Below, piece by piece: positions 3,001 to 35,503 of a stretch of 64,000 nucleotides of DNA. This stretch comes from a virus (taxonomy: Duplodnaviria > Caudoviricetes): positions 24,721-88,720 of IMG/VR virus record IMGVR_UViG_3300030372_003714, one strand, 5' to 3'. Both the position numbers and the translations under genes were made by a program. Within the stretch, counting starts at the first letter, position 1, and every line of letters starts with the position of its first letter. A model generated the notes under the pieces. That model was not told where the DNA came from. It saw only the letters and a program-made list of their open reading frames with translations, and did no database searches.

Positions 3001-6000
3001 GGAGTTAAAGTTTAACATAGTAGATTGTCCATTAAAATCTGCTACCGGTGCTCCTGTACTAAAATCTATTCCTAGTCTATCTCCATAGAACCAATTTGTA
3101 CCTGCTATTGGATTTCCTTGGCTAGTACATTGTTTCCAACATCCTATTTGTCCTCCTAATTCTACTACATCTGTTCCTATTGTAGCACCAAGTCCTCCTG
3201 ATACAGTTATTGTTGTTCCTGGATTAGTACATGATTCTAATAATGTACATTGAGGATCACATGGATTTACTAAACAATAACTACAATCTGGCATATTACC
3301 TGTTCCTACTGTTGCTGTAGCTATCGCAGTTACATCTGCATCTGGTAGCATACCAGTACAATCAGCACTAGCACTTACTGTCCAACATCCTGTATAAAGA
3401 ATACCACCTACTGTTATATCTGCTTGAACTACAGATCCTACATCAGCAGCTGTAATACCTGTTGTTACATTAACAATTTGATCTGGTACATATGAAGGAC
3501 CACAACAATGTGCTACTTTTACACATGTTTGTCCTGAAGTAGCGCAATCTGCACAATCTGCATAAGACGCAGTTATTGCTCCAGTAGGATATACTACTGT
3601 TGTAGGTCCTAAACAACCTACTAATACTTTATGACAATTATCTTGTGCTACTCCCCCTATTGTAATATCATGAGCATTAGCTGCTCCAATAAAAGGATGA
3701 AGTGTCGGAGAATTCAAATAATCAACACTAGTTATATTTCCTGTAACACAATCTTCAACTCTTAAATAATATCTACAAGAAGCACAATCTACTTGGGTAG
3801 ATGATACAGTTAGAGCTGCCTCAGTTCCTTGAGGACCGGTTGGATTAATTTGTATTTCTCTACAGAAACATTCTCCTGCTAAATGTACTACTACTCCTGC
3901 TGCAAAATAAGCATCTATTAATGGAGTTGATGTAGCTCCTACTCCATTAACTGTATATACAACATCAGTAGGATCTCCACATTTTGGTAATTTATAATAT
4001 ACTGTTGGATCTGGAGTACAAGTAGGACAATCTGAATATGGCCCAGGACTAGTATCTAATATAACTGATACTGGGCTTATACAAGTTGGAGATTTTTCTA
4101 CATACCAACAAGTACCTCCTTGAAGTCTTACATATAAACCTATATAAGGAGATAATATAGCTTGAGTACTATATTGTATAACTCCTGTATCACAATTTGT
4201 TAATTTATAGCAACAATCTTCTGTACCTGGTGCACTTAAACAATCAACACAGTCTGTATATAAAGTTACACTAGGATCTGTATTATTTGGCCACTTAGAA
4301 CATATATCATTATAACCTAAACCTGTAGGAATATTCGTCCAAGCATTTGTTGCTGTAACTGGGTTAATTAAACCTATTACAGCTGTCTGTCCAGTACCAG
4401 CATCATTTAATGTATGTAAAAATAATTCATAATTACCAATACCTACTAGCTTTGCAGATATAATATAAGTAATACTAGTAGCTATACTAAGACCTCTAAC
4501 TCTTTCTATACCATATGCATCTTGTCCTGCAACAAAACTACAAACAGTAGCTAAGTCAGATATTACTGTATGATTACCATTAGCATCATCAATGCTCATT
4601 AATTTATTTAAACCTCCAGCTCCAGTATTATCTCCTAATACATAATAATCACCGCTATTATAATCTACAGATAAATCATATCCTAAACTAATAGTTGCAT
4701 TAGTTACACTACCTGCTATTGCTATACCTCCGCTTAAAGAATTAGTATATCTAGCAAACGTCGCATTTCCTCCTACCATATCACCTGCTACAATATGTCC
4801 TGTTGCACTATAATCATAATCTAAACATTGAGGAACTGTAAAAGCATTGGTAATTAGCTCAGGATCAGATATATAACTTGGCCACGCTGATGCCCAAGAT
4901 ATATCAGTAGCGCCTGATGTATATATAATATTACCATGTTTATCAAATGTTAGATCTTTTAGATTACCTATAACACCATTCCATGTAGTAAATTCAGAAA
5001 TAGAACAAGTACCATTTAGTACATTATCAATAGAATAAATATTTCCATCTTCAGAAGTAAACCAAAAATGCTCTGTTGGAGCTGTTGCTTCACCACAAAC
5101 TGGCGTTCCTCCATTACTAACTGAATATACATCGCCAGCTACTACAGTAGTTAAATCATTAGTAATTATTCCAGGCATTTCTACTGGGCCTAAAGAATAC
5201 GTTCCTCCTGTTGGAGTTGTAGCTTCAATACAACATGGTAAAAATCCTATACATCTATCTTGAAAAACATCTAAACATGCTCTACAAGTATTATAAAAAG
5301 TATCAGGTTGTTGCCAGTCACAAGGTTGAACATGATGTGTAGTAGGAATTTCTGATGTATAACAAAAGAAACATCCTCTATGCTCTCCAGTAGCTGGTAG
5401 TTGCCAAACATCTGTATTAGGATCATTACATTTACCTGCATAGAATGCATAATCTGGATCTATACCTAATATTCTTAATGGGCTGTTCTCAAAATACCAA
5501 GCTGCATTTGCAGTTGAACATGACATAGGAAGACTTGTCCAAGGGAAAAGTCCAGGATCTGTAACTATTGAAGTAGCAAATGCTGCCCAAACTATAGCAG
5601 CACCTGATGCTACATCCCCATTATGTGTTACTGTTGAACCTAAAGCTCCTGTTGTAATCTGTACTTTATCCGTACCACCAATTCTAGAAATTGTTATAGT
5701 AGTAATATTTCCTGGAGCTGCATTTGTACATAAAGTCCAAGCCCCTGCTACTGTATCATATATAGCTACTCTATCACCAAAAGCTACATATACTAACTGA
5801 AGTGATACATCTACTCTACTATATGTGGCAACAGCAGTAGGATGTTTACCTGCTAATGCGCCTCCAAATGCAGATGATATATCAATTTGAGACGCGGCAG
5901 ACCAAGCGCTTACTTCATTAGTATCTGTTTTTATAGCACCAATACTATAAATATTAGTTTCTCCTGCTTTTAATCCTACAAATTGAAATGTATCACATAA

Positions 6001-9440: not shown

Positions 9441-10049
9441 TTATGAAGACGTGCATGATGCACAAGTCCCCTTATAATTACACAATTTATTTACCTGTTT
9501 TGCCATTTTCGCGGCTTTAGTTAAACTTCCACAGGTATAAGCATATAACATGGCTTTATAAAGTGTATAAGCTTCAAGAGCATTTGACTTATCTTCTCCA
9601 CAAGGACACTCATCACATATATCTAGATTTGCTAACATCTTGTGTACACAACATTTAATTACACTAGACATTAATCCATATTTTCTTTTTGTGATTAAGA
9701 ATCCGCCTTGAGTTCCGTCATTTACTAATATTCTATATTCAAATTCATAGATACCTTGAATTACCGTTTGACCTGCAGCTCCTCCTAAAAGACCCATATG
9801 AATATTAAATTCTCCATTTATTCCATTAGGAAGATCTGGAGAAATCATTGTAAAGTCTAATACGTATTTGGTTCCGCTCGGAGTAGTTACAATAATCTCC
9901 GCATCTAAAACGTCCCCTAATTCATAATTAGGTGTACCCCATCCACCAGGAGTGAATTGACTATATACACCTGTTATATCTGTAAATATAATACTTTTAT
10001 TATCGCATGCTTCGTGTATCCTAAAATCTACTTTTGTTATTCCAGCCAT
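9441..10049 (-). CDS. Putative virion structural protein with Cys-rich helical C-terminus
   Basis: Beta-rich N-terminus and CC/CxxC-containing C-terminus; located among structural genes. Confidence 0.5.
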   Translation of the reverse strand: MAGITKVDFRIHEACDNKSIIFTDITGVYSQFTPGGWGTPNYELGDVLDAEIIVTTPSGTKYVLDFTMISPDLPNGINGEFNIHMGLLGGAAGQTVIQGIYEFEYRILVNDGTQGGFLITKRKYGLMSSVIKCCVHKMLANLDICDECPCGEDKSNALEAYTLYKAMLYAYTCGSLTKAAKMAKQVNKLCNYKGTCASCTSS

Positions 10050-28683: not shown

Positions 28684-29016
28684 TTATTTACACCTTTTGT
28701 AAAAAACTGCATCTGCACCTGCCACATCACATGATTCAATATTCATTTCCCAACTCATAGAATATCTTAAATCGAGATTTAGTGTTGTTACAGGAGCATT
28801 ATTAGCTAGAGCTGAATCATTCCATGGCTCTCCTTTCCAAACGATATTACTTAAAATGAGAGGGGCTGCCGCAAGGCCTTTCATCATGACATAGTCACCA
28901 GCTGGTAAAGCTTGTCCCTTACGTACTAACTGTGCACCACAACCACAACCTGGATCGGTTGAGTTGCTTTGCTTGTTTATTGCACTTACTAATCTGCTAT
29001 TATCTGTTATTGCCAT
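28684..29016 (-). CDS. Hypothetical protein
   Basis: 110-aa ORF with CGCG motif. Confidence 0.55.
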   Translation of the reverse strand: MAITDNSRLVSAINKQSNSTDPGCGCGAQLVRKGQALPAGDYVMMKGLAAAPLILSNIVWKGEPWNDSALANNAPVTTLNLDLRYSMSWEMNIESCDVAGADAVFYKRCK

Positions 29017-29038
29017 TATTCTTCGTTTTTAAATTTAG

Positions 29039-29110
29039 TAGCGGGTGAAGGAATCGAACCTCCGGCTCTGGCTAATGAAACCAGCGAGTTCACCATTACT
29101 CTAACCCGCG
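29039..29110 (-). tRNA. tRNA-Met(CAT), initiator-like, CCA not encoded
   Basis: Cloverleaf: CGCGGGT/ACCCGCT, D stem GAGT/ACTC, anticodon stem CTGGT/GCCAG with loop TT-CAT-TA, T arm GGAGG-TTCGATT-CCTTC. Confidence 0.85.
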
Positions 29111-29469
29111 ATATTATTTTTTTCTAAAAAGTAATTGGTTCTAGGATAGTTCTTCGCATCATCTTTTACATATGCATCACGATCTACTCGTACTTCTAAG
29201 AAATCAAATGCATCTTTCTTAAAGCTATCTTTATTCTTTTTTCCTAAATCCGCTATTGCTGTATACATATATCCACACGGAGCCCCTGAAGGATCTAATA
29301 CGCTCCATATTCTCCTCGGAGTACCATCATTAGCTTCTGCTTTAAACATAACCTTGAGTTTGTGGTTATCGATATAAGTAAAAGCTTCCTCTTTATTCAC
29401 GATACATGCATTAGCTTGTTTATGCGTACAGTAGAATAGTTCTTTCCAGTCTTTTTCCTTTTTTGCCAT
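29101..29469 (-). CDS. Hypothetical protein, first gene of the leftward operon
   Basis: 122 aa; its last codons overlap the tRNA 5' end. Confidence 0.6.
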   Translation of the reverse strand: MAKKEKDWKELFYCTHKQANACIVNKEEAFTYIDNHKLKVMFKAEANDGTPRRIWSVLDPSGAPCGYMYTAIADLGKKNKDSFKKDAFDFLEVRVDRDAYVKDDAKNYPRTNYFLEKNNIAG

Positions 29470-29517
29470 TAACTTTCATTTTAGCTATAGTTTTATACTT
29501 AACTATAATTATGGTGA

Positions 29518-29525
29518 CAAAGATA
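29518..29525 (-). promoter_or_regulatory. Bacteroidota -7 promoter (TATCTTTG) heading the leftward late operon
   Basis: TAnnTTTG about 50 nt upstream of the 29469 ATG, at the strand switch. Confidence 0.6.
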
Positions 29526-29680
29526 TATAAAAAAATCCTATAAAAAATAATTTTTTCTATAAAATTTTTTATGGTATATATTCTAAGATGCAGACCATTA
29601 TTGAAAAGTCCCCCCGGTCTGAAAGAGAAATCAAATCCCCCCACGTCGAAATTAGATCATAACCATTACAGAATATTGGT

Positions 29681-29923
29681 ATGGATAATACATCTACTAC
29701 TACTACAGTTAAGTCTCCTAAGAGATATGGTCGTTATGACATTGTTACTCTTAAGTCTGACGGTTCTAGGAAGATAGTTCTTCGTAGAGACGGACAACTT
29801 AAGTACGACACTGTTACTGACAAGTTCGTATCAACTAAGGGAGATGAGTGGTTTGAGTATACTGAAGAGGTAATTCAGTATCTTGACAAATCCCTTCAAG
29901 AGAAAGGATACATTGAACTGTAG
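29681..29923 (+). CDS. First rightward (early) small protein
   Basis: 80 aa; distinctive codon choice (cgt, tct, ctt, aag, gac). Confidence 0.75.
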   Translation: MDNTSTTTTVKSPKRYGRYDIVTLKSDGSRKIVLRRDGQLKYDTVTDKFVSTKGDEWFEYTEEVIQYLDKSLQEKGYIEL

Positions 29924-29992
29924 TAGATACTAATCATCACACCAGATGAACAGTATTGGAGTCGTTATACACTCTATCAATCAGTATAACAC

Positions 29993-30062
29993 ACAACACT
30001 CGGGTCGTTCCCTAACTCACTGACTAAGGTTTATCCTAAAGGTGAGAGTGTTGTTCTTTTTT
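29993..30062 (+). terminator. Branched hairpin plus U-tract
   Basis: acaacactc/gagtgttgt 9-bp stem enclosing GGG/CCC and AGG/CCT hairpins, followed by TCTTTTTT. Confidence 0.55.
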
Positions 30063-30224
30063 AGATCTATGACCATTACTAAGTTTTGGTAGGTTAAGTG
30101 TTGTTCACTTATAATTGACGACTTAAGAAAGTTATTGTAATACAATAGAAGTTCGACAGATGATCTAATTCAGAAAAGATGTCTTCCTACCTTTATTAGG
30201 AACTAGTGTTGAGTGTGTGTGTGT

Positions 30225-30295
30225 GAGACACAAGGAGAACAAGTGTTATGACCCCTTGAGTAAAATCAAGAACTACTTGTCTCTTCTTTTTTTTT
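30225..30295 (+). terminator. Branched hairpin plus U-tract
   Basis: gagac(ac)aag/cttgtctc stem, inner cttga/tcaag hairpin, then TTC and T9. Confidence 0.55.
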
Positions 30296-30526
30296 AGATC
30301 AACGACCTTTACTAAAATTTGGATACGATTAACCACAATCTGTGTGTGTGTGATACGAATTATATTCCTCATTCCCTTATAAAACAACTCAACACTTAAT
30401 GATATTGATAAGAATGATGAAAATAAGTATACATAGACACTTATGTGTGTTAAGACTACCATTTAACTAACATTTTAACTAATTGTTATTATAGTATATT
30501 AATATATATATAGCTAAAGTGCTACT

Positions 30527-31270
30527 ATGATAACTACAAACCGAAGAGAACAATGTGATAACCGTTCAACTAAACAAATGGCGAAAATACAATATACGCA
30601 ACAAGAGCAAGATGCTATCAAATCATTACAAACTGGTCAAGCACTTGCATTAAACATCAAGAGAATTAACTCTAAGACTGATGTAAAGAACTACAGCATT
30701 GAAGTAAGACAAAGACTGTCTGAAAGTGCATCATTTAATCTATTAGGTTTTATGAATCCAAATAATCCATCATTCTCATCATCTAGTGGTGTAAGAGTTG
30801 GTTGGATGACTGTTAGTGCTGAACAAGCTACAAGTTTGTTTGGTGTTGATAGCAATGCTTTAGACAATTTACCTATTGATAGTGGTTTCACTAGAATATT
30901 TATAGGTAAACTTAATCCATCATTCGCAATGCCTGATGGAAGCGAGAAATACTTGCAATTACAAATCAATGCTAAATTCTTGAGTGAGTTTGACCCAACT
31001 ACAGAAAATGGGAAATACAAGCACAATAATGTTGATAGAGTTGCAAAGAAAAATCCTGGTACAAACAAGTTTATAATGGGCTTGAATAAAAATACAGGTG
31101 AGATTGAACATATCATTGAAGAAACAGTGGTTAAATCATCTACAATGCGCGATGGAGTGCTTGTTAAAGATGGTTGGGACCACGTTATCATTGAAGAATA
31201 TGTTGGTGAAGCAGAAACTAAAACAGTTCAACAAGCTGTTGAGCAAATGTCTGAATTACCAACATTATAG
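30527..31270 (+). CDS. Early hypothetical protein (start may be the ATG at about 30578)
   Basis: 247-aa ORF with genuine coding composition; no family recognised. Confidence 0.75.
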   Translation: MITTNRREQCDNRSTKQMAKIQYTQQEQDAIKSLQTGQALALNIKRINSKTDVKNYSIEVRQRLSESASFNLLGFMNPNNPSFSSSSGVRVGWMTVSAEQATSLFGVDSNALDNLPIDSGFTRIFIGKLNPSFAMPDGSEKYLQLQINAKFLSEFDPTTENGKYKHNNVDRVAKKNPGTNKFIMGLNKNTGEIEHIIEETVVKSSTMRDGVLVKDGWDHVIIEEYVGEAETKTVQQAVEQMSELPTL

Positions 31271-31360
31271 TATTAATCTGGTGTGAATAGTTGTGTGTGA
31301 GTGTGTGGCTTCGTGTCACCACTCTACATACATCTAGAATTACCATAAAAACAGTTTGTT

Positions 31361-31594
31361 ATGAGAAATCAATTTAAACATCTATTAGATACATTATTTG
31401 TATCACTATTATACATTGGTATGATAGTATTTCCACTATTCATTGTATTAAACATATTAAATGTATGGGATCTAGGTAGTGGATTGTTAAATTTAATTGC
31501 CATCATATTTGCAGTAATATTTACTATTGCGTGTAAGTATGGTACAAGAGAAGCAAGAATTAGTCATAATCGTGGCGATAGATTCTTGTTTTAA
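31361..31594 (+). CDS. Small 2-TM membrane protein
   Basis: Two long hydrophobic segments. Confidence 0.65.
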   Translation: MRNQFKHLLDTLFVSLLYIGMIVFPLFIVLNILNVWDLGSGLLNLIAIIFAVIFTIACKYGTREARISHNRGDRFLF

Positions 31595-31599
31595 TTAAT

Positions 31600-31648
31600 A
31601 ATAAGGTACAGGGAGTTCCTGCTAAGTTAGTTACCGCTCAGCCTTATT
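31600..31648 (+). ncRNA. Structured RNA motif, copy 1
   Basis: AATAAGG-TA-CAGG..GTTCCTG-CTAAGTT..CAG-CCTTATT; second copy at 31990-32057. Confidence 0.55.
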
Positions 31649-31674
31649 TATCTTTTAATTTAAACTATATTGTT

Positions 31675-31884
31675 ATGATAGTATTAAGATCAGAATCACA
31701 GGTTAAATCATTTATGAAAAGAATGAATAAAGAACATAGTCGTTGTTATTATGATTATGATGAATCGTATGACCAATGGGTATTTAAAGATGGTAATAAA
31801 ATAGTTCTTCGTTATCATAGACAATTTGGAAATTATGAAGAACATAATGATCAGCTTTTAGCTGTGATAAAGAATAAAGCTTAG
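31675..31884 (+). CDS. Small early hypothetical protein
   Basis: 69-aa ORF with AT-rich leader. Confidence 0.6.
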   Translation: MIVLRSESQVKSFMKRMNKEHSRCYYDYDESYDQWVFKDGNKIVLRYHRQFGNYEEHNDQLLAVIKNKA

Positions 31885-32690
31885 CGGCTTTATATTGTGA
31901 CATTAGTCAGTCACTCTTAAATAGCATAGGGTGACTCCTATTCAGGGTTAGCAACCCTTATTCCTAGAAGACTAGAATTAAATAAAGCTAATAAGGTACA
32001 GGTATTTGCTTGATGATGTAAATAGTTCCTGCTAAGTTGATGTTATCCAGCCTTATTTATGATAAACTAAAGACTACGTCAATTAGGCGAGCCTTAAGGG
32101 TAACGAAAGTAGAGCGAAAGCTTGTCGTCACACTGCTCTGGTCTTTAGATACAAAGTGGATAAATGTTTAAAAGCCAGGCACCACACTCGGTAACAGAGA
32201 CTGGTTAAGAAATAATACTTCATGGAGTTAATGCAAAAAGCTTCAGTCATTCTAGATGGGCAAGGTATGTTTTGATAGCAAACACAGAGTAATTTATAGC
32301 TGAAGGAAAGTTCCTTTATAAAAAAGACTTAGTTTTATAGCTGAGATTTCAGAATGAACTGTGGGCATATGATAGAAGTATAATAATATTTTCAACCACT
32401 TATAGTAGAGCCTGAGTCTACACTTAATTAGATAGGAACATCTAACCTCTGGTGTGTAAAGTAGGTCTCCATTGTGATGCATATAGTTTTCTATTTGTCG
32501 TAAATAAGAGTATGCATTTTCTTTTGGATCGAAAGAGTATAAAGAAGATGCTATGTAATGTATTACACATGATGGACTCTCTGCATACTATAATCTGGTT
32601 GAATCTCTATGAGTGAGTGACAGTATTGCTTGATGTGCCTTAGATGTGGACGATAGTTGACGCTGTTACTACACTCATATTTAATTAAAT
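31885..32690 (+). ncRNA. About 800-nt ORF-free, hairpin-rich region (candidate large ncRNA or ncRNA cluster); includes motif copy 2 at 31990-32057
   Basis: No sense ORF of 60 aa or more; many stems, including 32067-32074/32141-32148 and 32608-32624/32662-32679; GNRA loops. Confidence 0.5.
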
Positions 32691-32711
32691 GTATAACTTA
32701 AATTATTAATT

Positions 32712-32909
32712 ATGGAAAATATTGCTATATTTGCGCTCATTTTTGTTAGTGGAGTTGTATTAGGAGTTTATATTATGGTTCAAATAAATAATAAATATGA
32801 TCGTAAAACTATGGATCAGTTATTAGAATTAGAAGATCATGTAGCATCTTTAAAAAAGTATAATCGTGCTTTATTAGATAAATTAAAGCCTAAAACACTC
32901 GAAGACTGA
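32712..32909 (+). CDS. Small protein with N-terminal TM and coiled coil
   Basis: IAIFALIFVSGVVLGVYIMV TM segment. Confidence 0.65.
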   Translation: MENIAIFALIFVSGVVLGVYIMVQINNKYDRKTMDQLLELEDHVASLKKYNRALLDKLKPKTLED

Positions 32910-33157
32910 TGAAATTAGAGATAAATAAAGAAAAAAATCCTGTTCAGTGGGCTCTAGATATGGCAGGTAAAGTAGAATGTCCTTATGCAGCTATGGTATT
33001 GTACAATAAACGTGATCAAATTATAAAACAAATTACGGTTATGGAACAAGATCATAAAGGTTATCAAAGTAAAGACATTAAACTTCAATTAACTACGTTT
33101 CGTTCAATGGCTAGAGAATTAGAACGAGCTGCAGAAATAATAATTATTGGTATATGA
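32909..33157 (+). CDS. Hypothetical protein
   Basis: Stop/start overlap with both neighbours. Confidence 0.65.
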   Translation: MKLEINKEKNPVQWALDMAGKVECPYAAMVLYNKRDQIIKQITVMEQDHKGYQSKDIKLQLTTFRSMARELERAAEIIIIGI

Positions 33158-33315
33158 AAAAGATTATAGTCATTTGGCCTAGACTTAAAAAGGCTATGAA
33201 AGAGGTACATCCAGCTGAATTAGGTGTATTTCTTGGATTTACAGGTATTATATTTACAGGATTAGCTGTAGTAGCTTATTCATTAGTTATAAATCTTATA
33301 AATCTACTCTCATGA
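33154..33315 (+). CDS. 53-aa single-TM protein (not in ORF track)
   Basis: MKKIIVIWPRLKKAMKEVHPAELGVFLGFTGIIFTGLAVVAYSLVINLINLLS; ATGA overlaps at both ends. Confidence 0.65.
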   Translation: MKKIIVIWPRLKKAMKEVHPAELGVFLGFTGIIFTGLAVVAYSLVINLINLLS

Positions 33316-33455
33316 CCAAAAATAACTCAGCATTCTTTGATATTAACCTCAATCCTTCTCGTGAAAAAGACGAGTCTTATGAAGATTATAAGAAAAGACA
33401 AAAAGAGGTAAAAAAAAGAATAAAACTACATTTGAAAGGGAGACGTATAAGATAA
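33312..33455 (+). CDS. 47-aa basic protein (not in ORF track)
   Basis: MTKNNSAFFDINLNPSREKDESYEDYKKRQKEVKKRIKLHLKGRRIR; ATGA-coupled to the previous gene. Confidence 0.65.
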   Translation: MTKNNSAFFDINLNPSREKDESYEDYKKRQKEVKKRIKLHLKGRRIR

Positions 33456-33461
33456 TTTTAT

Positions 33462-33469
33462 TATCTTTG
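33462..33469 (+). promoter_or_regulatory. Bacteroidota -7 promoter (TATCTTTG) upstream of the tRNA-like element and RNR
   Basis: Exact TAnnTTTG in an intergenic gap. Confidence 0.55.
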
Positions 33470-33519
33470 TTTCCCTTTTCGAATTACTCAACGCTATTCA
33501 CAATACAATCTTTGTATTT

Positions 33520-33615
33520 GTAGAGTAGGCAATGTTGGAATGTGCTTCAAAAGAGAGAGTATCCGGGTGCTCGAAACTGAACTCAGTTATAGGTTCGAAT
33601 CCTTACTACTCTATA
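33520..33615 (+). pseudogene. tRNA-like element with aberrant anticodon arm
   Basis: GTAGAGTAG/CTACTCTAT closing stem, D-like loop with TGG, long variable arm ACTGA/TCAGT, AGG-TTCGAAT-CCT T arm. Confidence 0.6.
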
Positions 33616-33643
33616 AATACATTATAATAACATTTAAAATTAA

Positions 33644-35503
33644 TTGCAAATGGATATATCTAATCAGATATTGAGCGACATCGTCGTCTTTAATAAATAC
33701 GCCAAGTTTATACCTGAAAAAGGTAGAAGGGAAACCTTCAATGAAATATGTGATCGTTATCAAACTATGATGATTACTAAACATCCTCATGTAGCCAAGG
33801 ATATAAAAAAGGCTATCAGCTATGTAAAAGAAAGAAAAATATTACCTTCGATGAGGGCTATGCAGTTCGCAGGAGCTGCCATAACTAAGTCAGAATCAAG
33901 GATTTATAACTGTGCGTATTTACCAATAGATGATTATAGAGCTTTCTCTGAAATCATGTTTCTACTGTTAGGTGGAACAGGTGTTGGTTATTCAGTGCAA
34001 TTTAAACACGTAAGAAATTTACCAGAAATAGTTAAACCACAAAAGACTCAAAAATATGTAATTGGAGATTCTATTGAAGGTTGGGCTGATTCTGTAAGAC
34101 ATCTCATTGGATCATATATGGGTGTAAGAAAGACAAAACCTGTCTTTGACTTCACAGATATAAGACCAAAGGGATCTAGGCTGGTAACGGCTGGGGGTAA
34201 AGCTCCTGGACCTGAACCGCTTAAAACATGTTTATATCATTTAGAAACATTACTAAACAGAAAACAAACAGGAGACTCTCTGACGCCTCTGGAGGTGCAC
34301 GATATGGTGTGTTTTATCGCTGACGCTGTGCTTGCAGGTGGGATAAGGAGAGCAGCATTGATTTCATTATTCTCAATGGATGATGAAGAGATGCTAACAA
34401 GTAAATATGGAAACTGGTGGGAGCTGAATCCTCAACGAGGAAGGGCTAACAACAGTGCAGTCATTCGTAGACACCGAATCACTCACTCTGAATTTAAGAA
34501 GTTCTGGAAGAAAATCCAAGAGTCTAATTCAGGTGAGCCGGGTATGTATTTCACTAATAATAGTGATTATGGTACAAACCCTTGTTGCGAGATTGCCTTA
34601 AAACCATTTCAATTTTGTAATCTAACCGAGGTTAACGTTTCAAATATTGAGTCACAAGAAGATCTTGAGAAGAGGTGTGAGTACGCATCATTACTGGGAA
34701 CTCTACAGGCGTCCTTCACGGACTTCCACTATCTTCGACCAATATGGAAACAAACAACTGAGAAAGACGCTTTAATAGGCGTTGGGATGACAGGTATAGG
34801 AAGTGGACAAATACTCAAGTATGATTTAAAGGGTGCGGCGCTTGCGTCTAACCGATCTAATGAATACTATTCTGAGTTATTAGGCATCAATAAAGCAGCG
34901 AGGGTAACTACTATTAAACCTTCCGGAACTACGAGCTGTGTATTAGGAACATCATCAGGAATACACGCATGGCATAACGACTATTATATTAGACGTATGC
35001 AATGCACTAAGGACGAGACTTTATATAAGTATTTGGCCAAAACTCATCCTGAACTAGTTGCTGATATGGAGTTAATACCAAACTCTGCAGTGATTGAGAT
35101 CCCTCAAAAAGCACCCGCTGGTTCCATTTTACGACATGAAGAAAGTGCACTTGACATGCTAGACCGAGTTAAAACATTTAACTTAGACTATGTGCGTGTA
35201 GGGCACAGATCAGGTGATAACACTAACAATGTATCTGCTACAGTCTCTATTAAAGAGGATGAGTGGAAACAAGTTGGTGAATGGATGTGGCTCAACAGAG
35301 ATACATTCAATGGGTTAAGTATATTACCATATGATGGTGGTACATACACTCAAGCACCATTTGAAAACATTTCAAAGACTAAATATTATAATATGATTAA
35401 CTCACTGACTGCTATTGATTTACGTAAAGTCAAAGAAACTGATGACAATACTACTCGAAGTCAAGAAGTAGCATGTGCTGGTGGATCATGTGAAATAGTA
35501 TAA
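33644..35503 (+). CDS. nrdJ: Class II (adenosylcobalamin-dependent) ribonucleotide reductase, monomeric RTPR type; probable ATG at 33650
   Basis: ILPSMRAMQFAG, YNCAY, TNPCCEI, TTIKPSGT; C-terminal CAGGSCEIV; no small-subunit gene nearby. Confidence 0.93.
   Translation: MQMDISNQILSDIVVFNKYAKFIPEKGRRETFNEICDRYQTMMITKHPHVAKDIKKAISYVKERKILPSMRAMQFAGAAITKSESRIYNCAYLPIDDYRAFSEIMFLLLGGTGVGYSVQFKHVRNLPEIVKPQKTQKYVIGDSIEGWADSVRHLIGSYMGVRKTKPVFDFTDIRPKGSRLVTAGGKAPGPEPLKTCLYHLETLLNRKQTGDSLTPLEVHDMVCFIADAVLAGGIRRAALISLFSMDDEEMLTSKYGNWWELNPQRGRANNSAVIRRHRITHSEFKKFWKKIQESNSGEPGMYFTNNSDYGTNPCCEIALKPFQFCNLTEVNVSNIESQEDLEKRCEYASLLGTLQASFTDFHYLRPIWKQTTEKDALIGVGMTGIGSGQILKYDLKGAALASNRSNEYYSELLGINKAARVTTIKPSGTTSCVLGTSSGIHAWHNDYYIRRMQCTKDETLYKYLAKTHPELVADMELIPNSAVIEIPQKAPAGSILRHEESALDMLDRVKTFNLDYVRVGHRSGDNTNNVSATVSIKEDEWKQVGEWMWLNRDTFNGLSILPYDGGTYTQAPFENISKTKYYNMINSLTAIDLRKVKETDDNTTRSQEVACAGGSCEIV

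Follow-up and report, generated by a model that had tools for sequence, protein, structure and literature searches.

CrAss-like phages rank with the most abundant of all phages, and we know of no explanation for their early transcription signals or for the long non-coding stretches of their early regions. Previous studies of the crAss-like phage phi14:2 indicate that its long early intergenic non-coding regions are highly transcribed and that the early transcripts of its virion polymerase carry no detectable common upstream motif (10.1101/2020.03.07.982082). In T4-type phages, the promoter-early stem-loops (PeSLs) are mobile regulatory cassettes in which a host sigma-70-type promoter is combined with a terminator stem-loop; a genome contains about 50 of them (Arbiol et al. 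2010, PMC2839356; Comeau et al. 2014, PMC4122927). Here we analyzed a 64,000-nucleotide stretch of phage DNA (the window) that contains two copies of a short non-coding repeat, element E, which behaves most like the PeSL cassettes yet is not a PeSL. Like the PeSLs, element E is short, conserved and intergenic, lies beside small ORFans in a hyperplastic early region and is situated at points of exchange; its two direct copies in the window bracket one ORFan, as in the substrates of PeSL mini-circles. The features by which a PeSL is recognized that we found in element E are the stem-loop, the stability of which is not above that of shuffled sequences, and the location at ORFan-rich exchange points. 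In contrast to the PeSLs, element E has only one or two copies in a genome, hardly differs in sequence between genomes that are very distant from each other, and has no host-type promoter. Searches for promoters of the Bacteroidota -33/-7 and sigma-70 types found no TTTG-N17-23-TAnnTTTG, TAnnTTTG or sigma-70-like pair in any copy of the element; within 120 nt of the copies, no such signal is common to them, and a generic promoter scan gave only a context-dependent hit on the minus strand at copy 1. The likeness to phi14:2 consists of the same phage order, the location in an extended part of the early arm that is free of ORFs, and the presence of positions 32405-32651 of the window in contigs from RNA libraries; the two are not known to be related in sequence, and the evidence for expression of the window consists of assembled contigs only.

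The window comprises bases 24721-88720 of an 88,720-bp IMG/VR record (G000) with terminal repeats. The terminase, the portal and the major capsid protein of this genome match crAss-type families, the major capsid protein is at most 44% identical to those of known Crassvirales, and the close relatives come from marine samples; G000 is a divergent, marine-type crAss-like phage. Element E is located in the arm transcribed from the + strand, a few kb past the strand switch, surrounded by small orphan ORFs and by long stretches free of ORFs, and upstream of the genes for RNR, DNA polymerase and helicase. A blastn search with the region of the element against 50,697 GenBank phages gave no match. The features of the locus are listed in Table 1.

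Table 1. Positions of element E and of the features around it in the window.
Feature	Position	Strand	Remarks
ORF of 77 aa, predicted membrane-like small protein	31361..31594	+	Its stop is the left edge of the variable slot
Insertion of ~792 bp with both copies of element E	31595..32386	+	Missing in L124 and in a contig of DNA run X3
Element E copy 1, short form	31599..31651, core 31600-31648	+	P1 of 7 bp, P2 of 4 bp, 5-nt loop
Cassette: leader, ORF69, U1 and long element E	31655..32058	+	90-92% with L302, L303, L304 and a DNA-run contig
ORF69 (P0001), orphan small gene between the copies	31675..31884	+	No Pfam or PHROG family, only three other homologue clusters
U1, hairpin-rich 3' region of ORF69	31885..31988	+	Moves with ORF69 and long element E in four contexts
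Element E copy 2, long form	31989..32060, core 31990-32057	+	21-nt hairpin-forming insert in the P2 loop, own 9-nt spacer
D1, non-coding, downstream of copy 2	32061..32386	+	Lineage-specific; in other genomes D2-D5 follow the element directly

The two + strand copies that the original prediction had placed at 31600-31648 and 31990-32057 were verified in their coordinates and in the order of their blocks. Copy 1 begins 5 nt past the stop codon that closes the 77-aa ORF, and the ATG of ORF69 follows 26 nt after the copy ends. Three blocks, 13-14, 15 and 13 nt long, are identical in the two copies and follow one another in the same order: block 1 consists of the 5' strand of the closing stem P1, UA and the 5' strand of the inner stem P2; block 2 has the 3' strand of P2 between AGTT and CTAAGTT; and block 3 has the 3' strand of P1 between CAG and TAT. 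Blocks 1 and 2 are separated by 1 nt in copy 1 and by 21 nt in copy 2, and blocks 2 and 3 are separated by unrelated spacers of 10 nt and 9 nt, respectively. The limits of the element are T-AATAAGG and CCTTATT-TAT, the short form being 49 nt and the long form 65-68 nt in length, and every copy ends in the 7-bp terminal inverted repeat AATAAGG/CCTTATT. P1 and P2 pair by sequence in both copies, as had been proposed: P1 forms 7 bp from the inverted repeat, or 8 bp if one U-G pair is counted, and P2 forms 4 bp (CAGG/CCTG). The additional sequence of copy 2 is likewise a hairpin, with 7 bp including one G-U pair, and RNAalifold independently recovered P1, P2 and this extension of P2. A covariance model built from copy 2 and the long copies of other contigs, without copy 1, detected copy 1 with 37 bits (E about 2e-5), which shows that the repeat is real and not a chance resemblance. 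Mismatch-tolerant searches and the covariance model found no third copy, either in the window or anywhere else in the 88,720-bp genome.

The repeat had been thought to form a three-way junction and to preserve its structure while its sequence varies, and neither idea was confirmed. We found no third helix common to the copies; the segment between blocks 2 and 3 is wholly different and has no common pairing in RNAalifold. Since only P1 and P2, with its extension, are common to the copies, element E is not a three-way junction. The apparent variation of sequence within a preserved structure comes down to the single insertion event in the loop: among the five distinct sequences (eight copies) 0 of 18 pairs vary, with one stem mismatch in L212, and because no paired column varies, the zero covariation speaks neither for nor against the fold. 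Homologous copies do exist in marine crAss-like phages, and they show no covariation. The minimum free energies of the two copies are ordinary for their composition (z = -0.95 and +0.22 versus shuffles), the minimum free energy structure of copy 1 is formed without P2, and in a longer transcript context P1 of copy 2 is absent from this structure and other pairings compete. The + strand of the element folds better than the - strand because the helices contain G-U pairs.

No family of Rfam matched element E at the gathering thresholds in a scan of the whole window, and with Rfam 15 nothing overlapped the element at E up to 10 in the region 29000-34000. ARAGORN likewise gave no tRNA-like call at the element. 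The sole Rfam match that we found was a tRNA-Met at 29039-29110. The absence of a match to known ribozyme cores, as originally judged by eye, was borne out for the self-cleaving classes of Rfam. Two further resemblances were considered and rejected. Part of the insert briefly resembles part of a pistol ribozyme sequence, and the Pistol model of Rfam did not match, while the pistol-like part is missing from copy 1; the CTAAG that follows a short hairpin in the element resembles the tail of type I-F CRISPR repeats, and the core of element E occurs in no prokaryote genome scanned.

Many small self-cleaving ribozymes are associated with phages or metagenomes, and element E has a similar size, a two-helix frame and conserved unpaired bases. 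The original prediction had read the repeat as an uncharacterized cis-regulatory or self-cleaving RNA. On such a reading, the unpaired UA, AGUU, CUAAGUU and CAG would be a catalytic core, or one that binds a ligand or a protein, between P1 and P2. These bases are indeed as invariant as the stems among the known copies, only the tip of P2 and one spacer being free to vary in length and sequence, and the insertion of a hairpin at the loop, the G-U pairs on the + strand and the sense orientation throughout fit the same picture. Element E would also be new as an RNA motif, since it belongs to no Rfam family. Against these points, the element has zero covariation, no third helix and a weak, non-significant fold, only about five distinct sequences are available, and recent transfer explains the invariance at least as well; the models of the hammerhead, twister, twister-sister, pistol, hatchet and HDV-like ribozymes do not match even at E up to 10, which sets the element apart from the known small ribozymes. 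What holds of the prediction is a conserved, stem-closed non-coding unit without an Rfam family; positive evidence of regulation or cleavage did not emerge, and we regard a structured cis-regulatory or self-cleaving RNA as distinctly unlikely.

The position of element E in related genomes points to an accessory unit. The insertion that holds it in the window begins right after the stop codon of the 77-aa ORF and includes, besides both copies, ORF69 and 330 non-coding nt. In the relatives L123 and L124, in which the neighboring 247-aa protein is 91% and 76% identical to that of the window, the slot contains a different insert of 274 bp and is empty, respectively, and a contig of DNA run X3 has an insert-free join of 31595 to 32406. 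The covariance model found no element E in 80 loci of related marine crAss-like phages, roughly half of which reach far enough toward the switch region, and, with its filters off, it found none in another 10 relatives in which the gene neighborhood is the same. Eighty RNR loci contained none either; the RNR gene is unfit as a synteny marker because it is too widely shared. Two exact patterns of the core were found in none of 185,579 prokaryote genomes, which makes a host repeat, a mimic of a CRISPR repeat or a host MITE unlikely. Exact-pattern scans of IMG/VR, which may omit records of the genome to which the window itself belongs, gave element E only in G001, a crAss-like genome of 113.6 kb that is the same as L205, L208, L209 and L214. 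The exact 15-mer matches in IMG/VR were set aside as chance, as was a match in L206 inside a coding region.

A second slot, located upstream of a conserved leader, is known in three states. It consists of X and the leader in L210, of X, h and the leader in L320, and of X, element E, h and the leader in G001, where h is another long hairpin of ~75 nt. In L210, element E is situated at a different place relative to X; element E and h behave as independent units. The joint in G001 has a 6-nt A/T overlap that includes the 3' end of the element itself, which looks like microhomology and not like a regular target duplication. A possibly conserved leader motif of the G001-type phages was not enriched in the window.

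Gapped pattern scans detected long copies, either exact or differing by 1-4 changes, in G001, L210, L211 (identical to L302), L212 and L213, and the homologues of ORF69 led to further long copies in L303 and L304. Except for the stem mismatch in L212, the few changes that distinguish the long copies are confined to the hairpin loop and the spacer. There are two copies in G000 and one in G001, and a whole-genome blastn comparison of these two genomes (88.7 and 113.6 kb) gave four alignments in all, one of which is element E with 98.7% identity over 76 nt, while the other three have 65-77%. Since copy 1 shows that the tip of P2 and the spacer can be dispensed with or replaced, the perfect identity of these two parts in distant genomes indicates recent transfer and not selection alone.

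The flanks of the element are reassorted. In marine metagenomes, element E is joined to at least five upstream types (U1-U5) and at least five downstream types (D1-D5), and the pairwise blastn homology between the loci starts and stops at the ends of the element. The combination U1-E-D1 is found in the window and in L305, L307 and L308, several assemblies of this phage; U1-E-D2 in L302; U1-E-D3 in L303 and L304, which are from two samples; and U5-E-D3 in L213. The cassette that the window shares with L302-L304 sets in just after copy 1 and ends together with copy 2. An exact repeat of 70 nt among co-occurring phages can break or mis-join metagenome contigs, so that chimeras are possible. L306, for instance, is 99.97% identical to the window on its left and 100% identical to G001 on its right with the overlap exactly in element E, and it may be a true recombinant or an assembly chimera; the flank combinations that occur in at least two independent assemblies do not rest on this contig. 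An apparent deletion after the element in L309 was rejected, as a scaffold gap of N directly follows the element there. All copies lie on the coding strand of the neighboring genes. The upstream stop codon is 5 nt away from copy 1 and 18 nt away from the copy in L213, and elsewhere long stretches of non-coding sequence lie in between; the next ORF of at least 40 aa follows after 26-654 nt. With such variable distances to the stop codon and the next ATG, a role at transcript boundaries is not evident from the position of the element.

The sporadic distribution, the near-identity across distant genomes, the empty and filled sites and the terminal inverted repeats of 7 bp could also describe a selfish, MITE-like element without function for the phage. 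Element E is small and non-coding and possibly transcribed, in which it further resembles the MITEs and the Correia/ERIC-type repeats. However, the flanks in eight contexts have no constant target-site duplication, one joint showing the 6-nt A/T overlap mentioned above, and the very low number of one or two copies per genome, the single orientation relative to transcription and the confinement to phage DNA, with none in the prokaryote genomes scanned, differ from what these repeats display. Copy 1, moreover, keeps its three blocks while the rest is replaced, which suggests selection, and we know of no transposase candidate for the element. A functionless mobile element is thus an unlikely account of element E.

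Another account takes element E as a DNA site for a phage protein, either a hairpin or cruciform promoter for the virion RNA polymerase, as in N4, or a recombination site similar to attC. Both strands of the stems are invariant even though the 10-nt spacer has been fully replaced, and in the early arm the element precedes small early ORFs. The virion RNA polymerase of phi14:2 is active on denatured DNA, and its early promoters are undefined (10.1101/2020.03.07.982082). As for a promoter, one that is essential for early transcription would not be expected to be missing, as element E is, from the closest relatives and from about 90 related loci. N4-type hairpin promoters are conserved at the head of the early units of related phages, and element E shows no such conservation. 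The one or two copies per genome, with the next gene 26-654 nt away, and the shift of the block spacing by 17-20 nt, not a whole number of helical turns, argue in the same direction. In the integrons, attC sites end in R'' (RYYYAAC) and R' (GTTRRRY). The arrangement of an ORF followed by a folded, imperfectly palindromic 3' element of variable central length, with cassettes bounded at the element, resembles that of an ORF with its attC, but the ends of element E, as read from the sequence, misfit the R''/R' consensus, only two elements are present, and no integrase was found among 22 proteins scanned against PHROGs. A DNA site of either kind therefore appears rather unlikely.

Contigs from RNA libraries provide a view of the element from the RNA side. 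A 172-nt contig from a marine metatranscriptome spans U1 and element E of a relative and continues about 19 nt beyond the element. The RNA-library contigs identical to the window cover the RNR gene besides the non-coding stretch mentioned at the outset, and none spans element E itself; a part that lacks such cover is uninformative. This cover is weak evidence because the contigs are assembled and possibly derived from DNA. The contig of the relative also bears on the simplest RNA-level account, in which element E would be a plain intrinsic terminator shared by chance. In its favor, a U-rich sequence follows P1, with a run of seven T after the element in L302 and L212, and copy 1 and the copy of L213 are situated shortly past a stop codon. 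Clear hairpin-plus-U9 terminators are found near the element in the window. The closing stem of element E, by contrast, is A/U-rich and encloses 35-54 nt; the tails in the window are interrupted (UUAUUUAUC and UUAUUUAUG), leaving no clean U-tract after either copy; a terminator scan gave no + strand call at either copy; the RNA-library contig of the relative runs past the element; and the conserved unpaired bases would be superfluous. We consider a plain terminator very unlikely.

As to the level at which element E acts, we lean toward RNA, on account of the sense orientation, the G-U pairs, the placement of the changes in loop and spacer, and the neighboring modules: M2, a stem-closed module in the same slots, has two compensatory pair changes, and h contains, as read from its letters, many G-U pairs on the + strand. 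The identity of the stems on both strands could equally reflect a DNA-binding protein or a very recent functionless spread.

Taken together, element E is discrete, sharp-ended and accessory, it lies at joints where the flanks reassort, and in the window its two copies bracket one orphan-gene cassette; this behavior at joints and in exchange is well supported. Our tentative reading, which we prefer to the others, is that element E is a non-coding module, closed by a stem and exchanged horizontally, which is situated at the joints of cassettes in the early region of marine crAss-like phages. It is probably functional, in the manner of a non-coding phage 'moron', because the unit persists in many contexts and copy 1 keeps its three blocks while the rest is replaced. 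As a small unit with a function, element E may pass from one co-infecting phage to another. Its first insertions would result from illegitimate joining, guided by microhomology, within A/T-rich linkers, and once both genomes carry the element, the identical blocks of 13-15 nt could serve as crossover points for the exchange of cassettes. In the + strand early transcript, the element would form a self-contained hairpin domain of P1 and P2, with the optional extension of P2, that some factor might recognize sequence-specifically. A candidate role is the punctuation of the transcript between cassettes, by 3'-end formation or attenuation, by processing or by protection from exonucleases; such a role at the RNA level is a guess. 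A bolder version, which we hold to be hardly probable, makes element E a small functional RNA, self-cleaving or factor-recruiting, with two helices and an invariant internal loop, which is traded as a free-standing non-coding 'gene' and punctuates early transcripts, one of a stem-closed set of E, h and M2 that forms the long non-coding early regions.

On the reading of element E as an exchanged module at cassette joints, the non-coding early regions of crAss-like phages would be built at least partly from small, discrete, stem-closed modules. Such modules would be gained, lost and exchanged independently of genes and would mark the swaps of orphan-gene cassettes between very different phages. 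The element also helps to understand the mis-assembly of crAss-like phages from metagenomes, in which contigs break or are mis-joined at the element because it is an exact repeat shared by co-occurring genomes. Element E thus offers a handle on the origin of mosaicism in this phage order and on the role of the early non-coding transcripts.

A second stem-closed module, M2, consists of two hairpins and a closing stem. In L123, a close relative that lacks the repeated element at the slot after the 77-aa ORF, M2 sits in this same slot within a 274-bp insert. Comparison of L123 with L211 and L311 revealed two compensatory pair changes: the closing stem goes from A-T to C-G, and an inner stem from A-T to G-C. 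A further module, h, is a long hairpin of ~75 nt with several G-U pairs on the + strand, which is found in the distant crAss-like genome G001 and in L320 and is missing from the corresponding slot of L210; its presence or absence is independent of that of the element. In the G001-type phages, the variable module slot lies immediately upstream of a conserved A/T-rich leader of ~38 nt, which directly precedes the start codon (ATG) of the first small ORFs. The leader motif is not enriched in the window.

Locations of the additional modules, leader and tRNA gene
Feature	Sequence	Position	Strand	Remark
h	G001 (L208)	9470-9544
h	L320	about 85-160
M2	L123	1981-2050
M2	L211	about 1035-1110	-
M2	L311	about 1916-1990
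~38-nt leader	G001 (L208)	9545-9580
~38-nt leader	L210	6640-6675
~38-nt leader	L302 (= L211)	2166-2201
~38-nt leader	L317, L318, L320			upstream of 48-aa ORF
tRNA-Met (CAT)	window	29038-29110	-	end of minus-strand arm, adjoining strand-switch region

The left part of contig L306 (ENA NODE_20, 77.8 kb) is 99.97% identical to the window and the right part is 100% identical to G001; their overlap is precisely the 76-nt element (3314-3389). Either L306 arose naturally by recombination between two highly dissimilar crAss-like phages, or the assembly joined them chimerically at the repeat that they share; a scaffold gap in L309 falls at the same point.

Two units (30017-30100 and 30225-30330) located where the + strand arm begins each comprise a branched hairpin, 6-9 consecutive T and a repeat of ~39 nt. 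The repeats are 82% identical and end in a TA-N3-TTTG-like box; the units look like terminator-promoter units. Their sequences are distinct from that of the element, except that one copy shares CTAAGTT with it.

Downstream of copy 2, window 32061-32386 is a lineage-specific non-coding stretch carrying hairpins with GAAA loops; it has no match in Rfam, and no counterpart was found beside the element in other genomes. The following ~325 nt (32387-32711) are ORF-free and 85-90% conserved in L123 and L124, another close relative without the element. Contigs assembled from two marine metatranscriptome runs match window 32405-32586 and 32439-32651 at 100%, alongside contigs of the RNR gene, and no RNA contig among them covers the adjoining small ORFs. 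Early non-coding RNA expression has been reported for the crAss-like phage phi14:2 (10.1101/2020.03.07.982082), and window 32387-32711 may likewise be an expressed early non-coding RNA.
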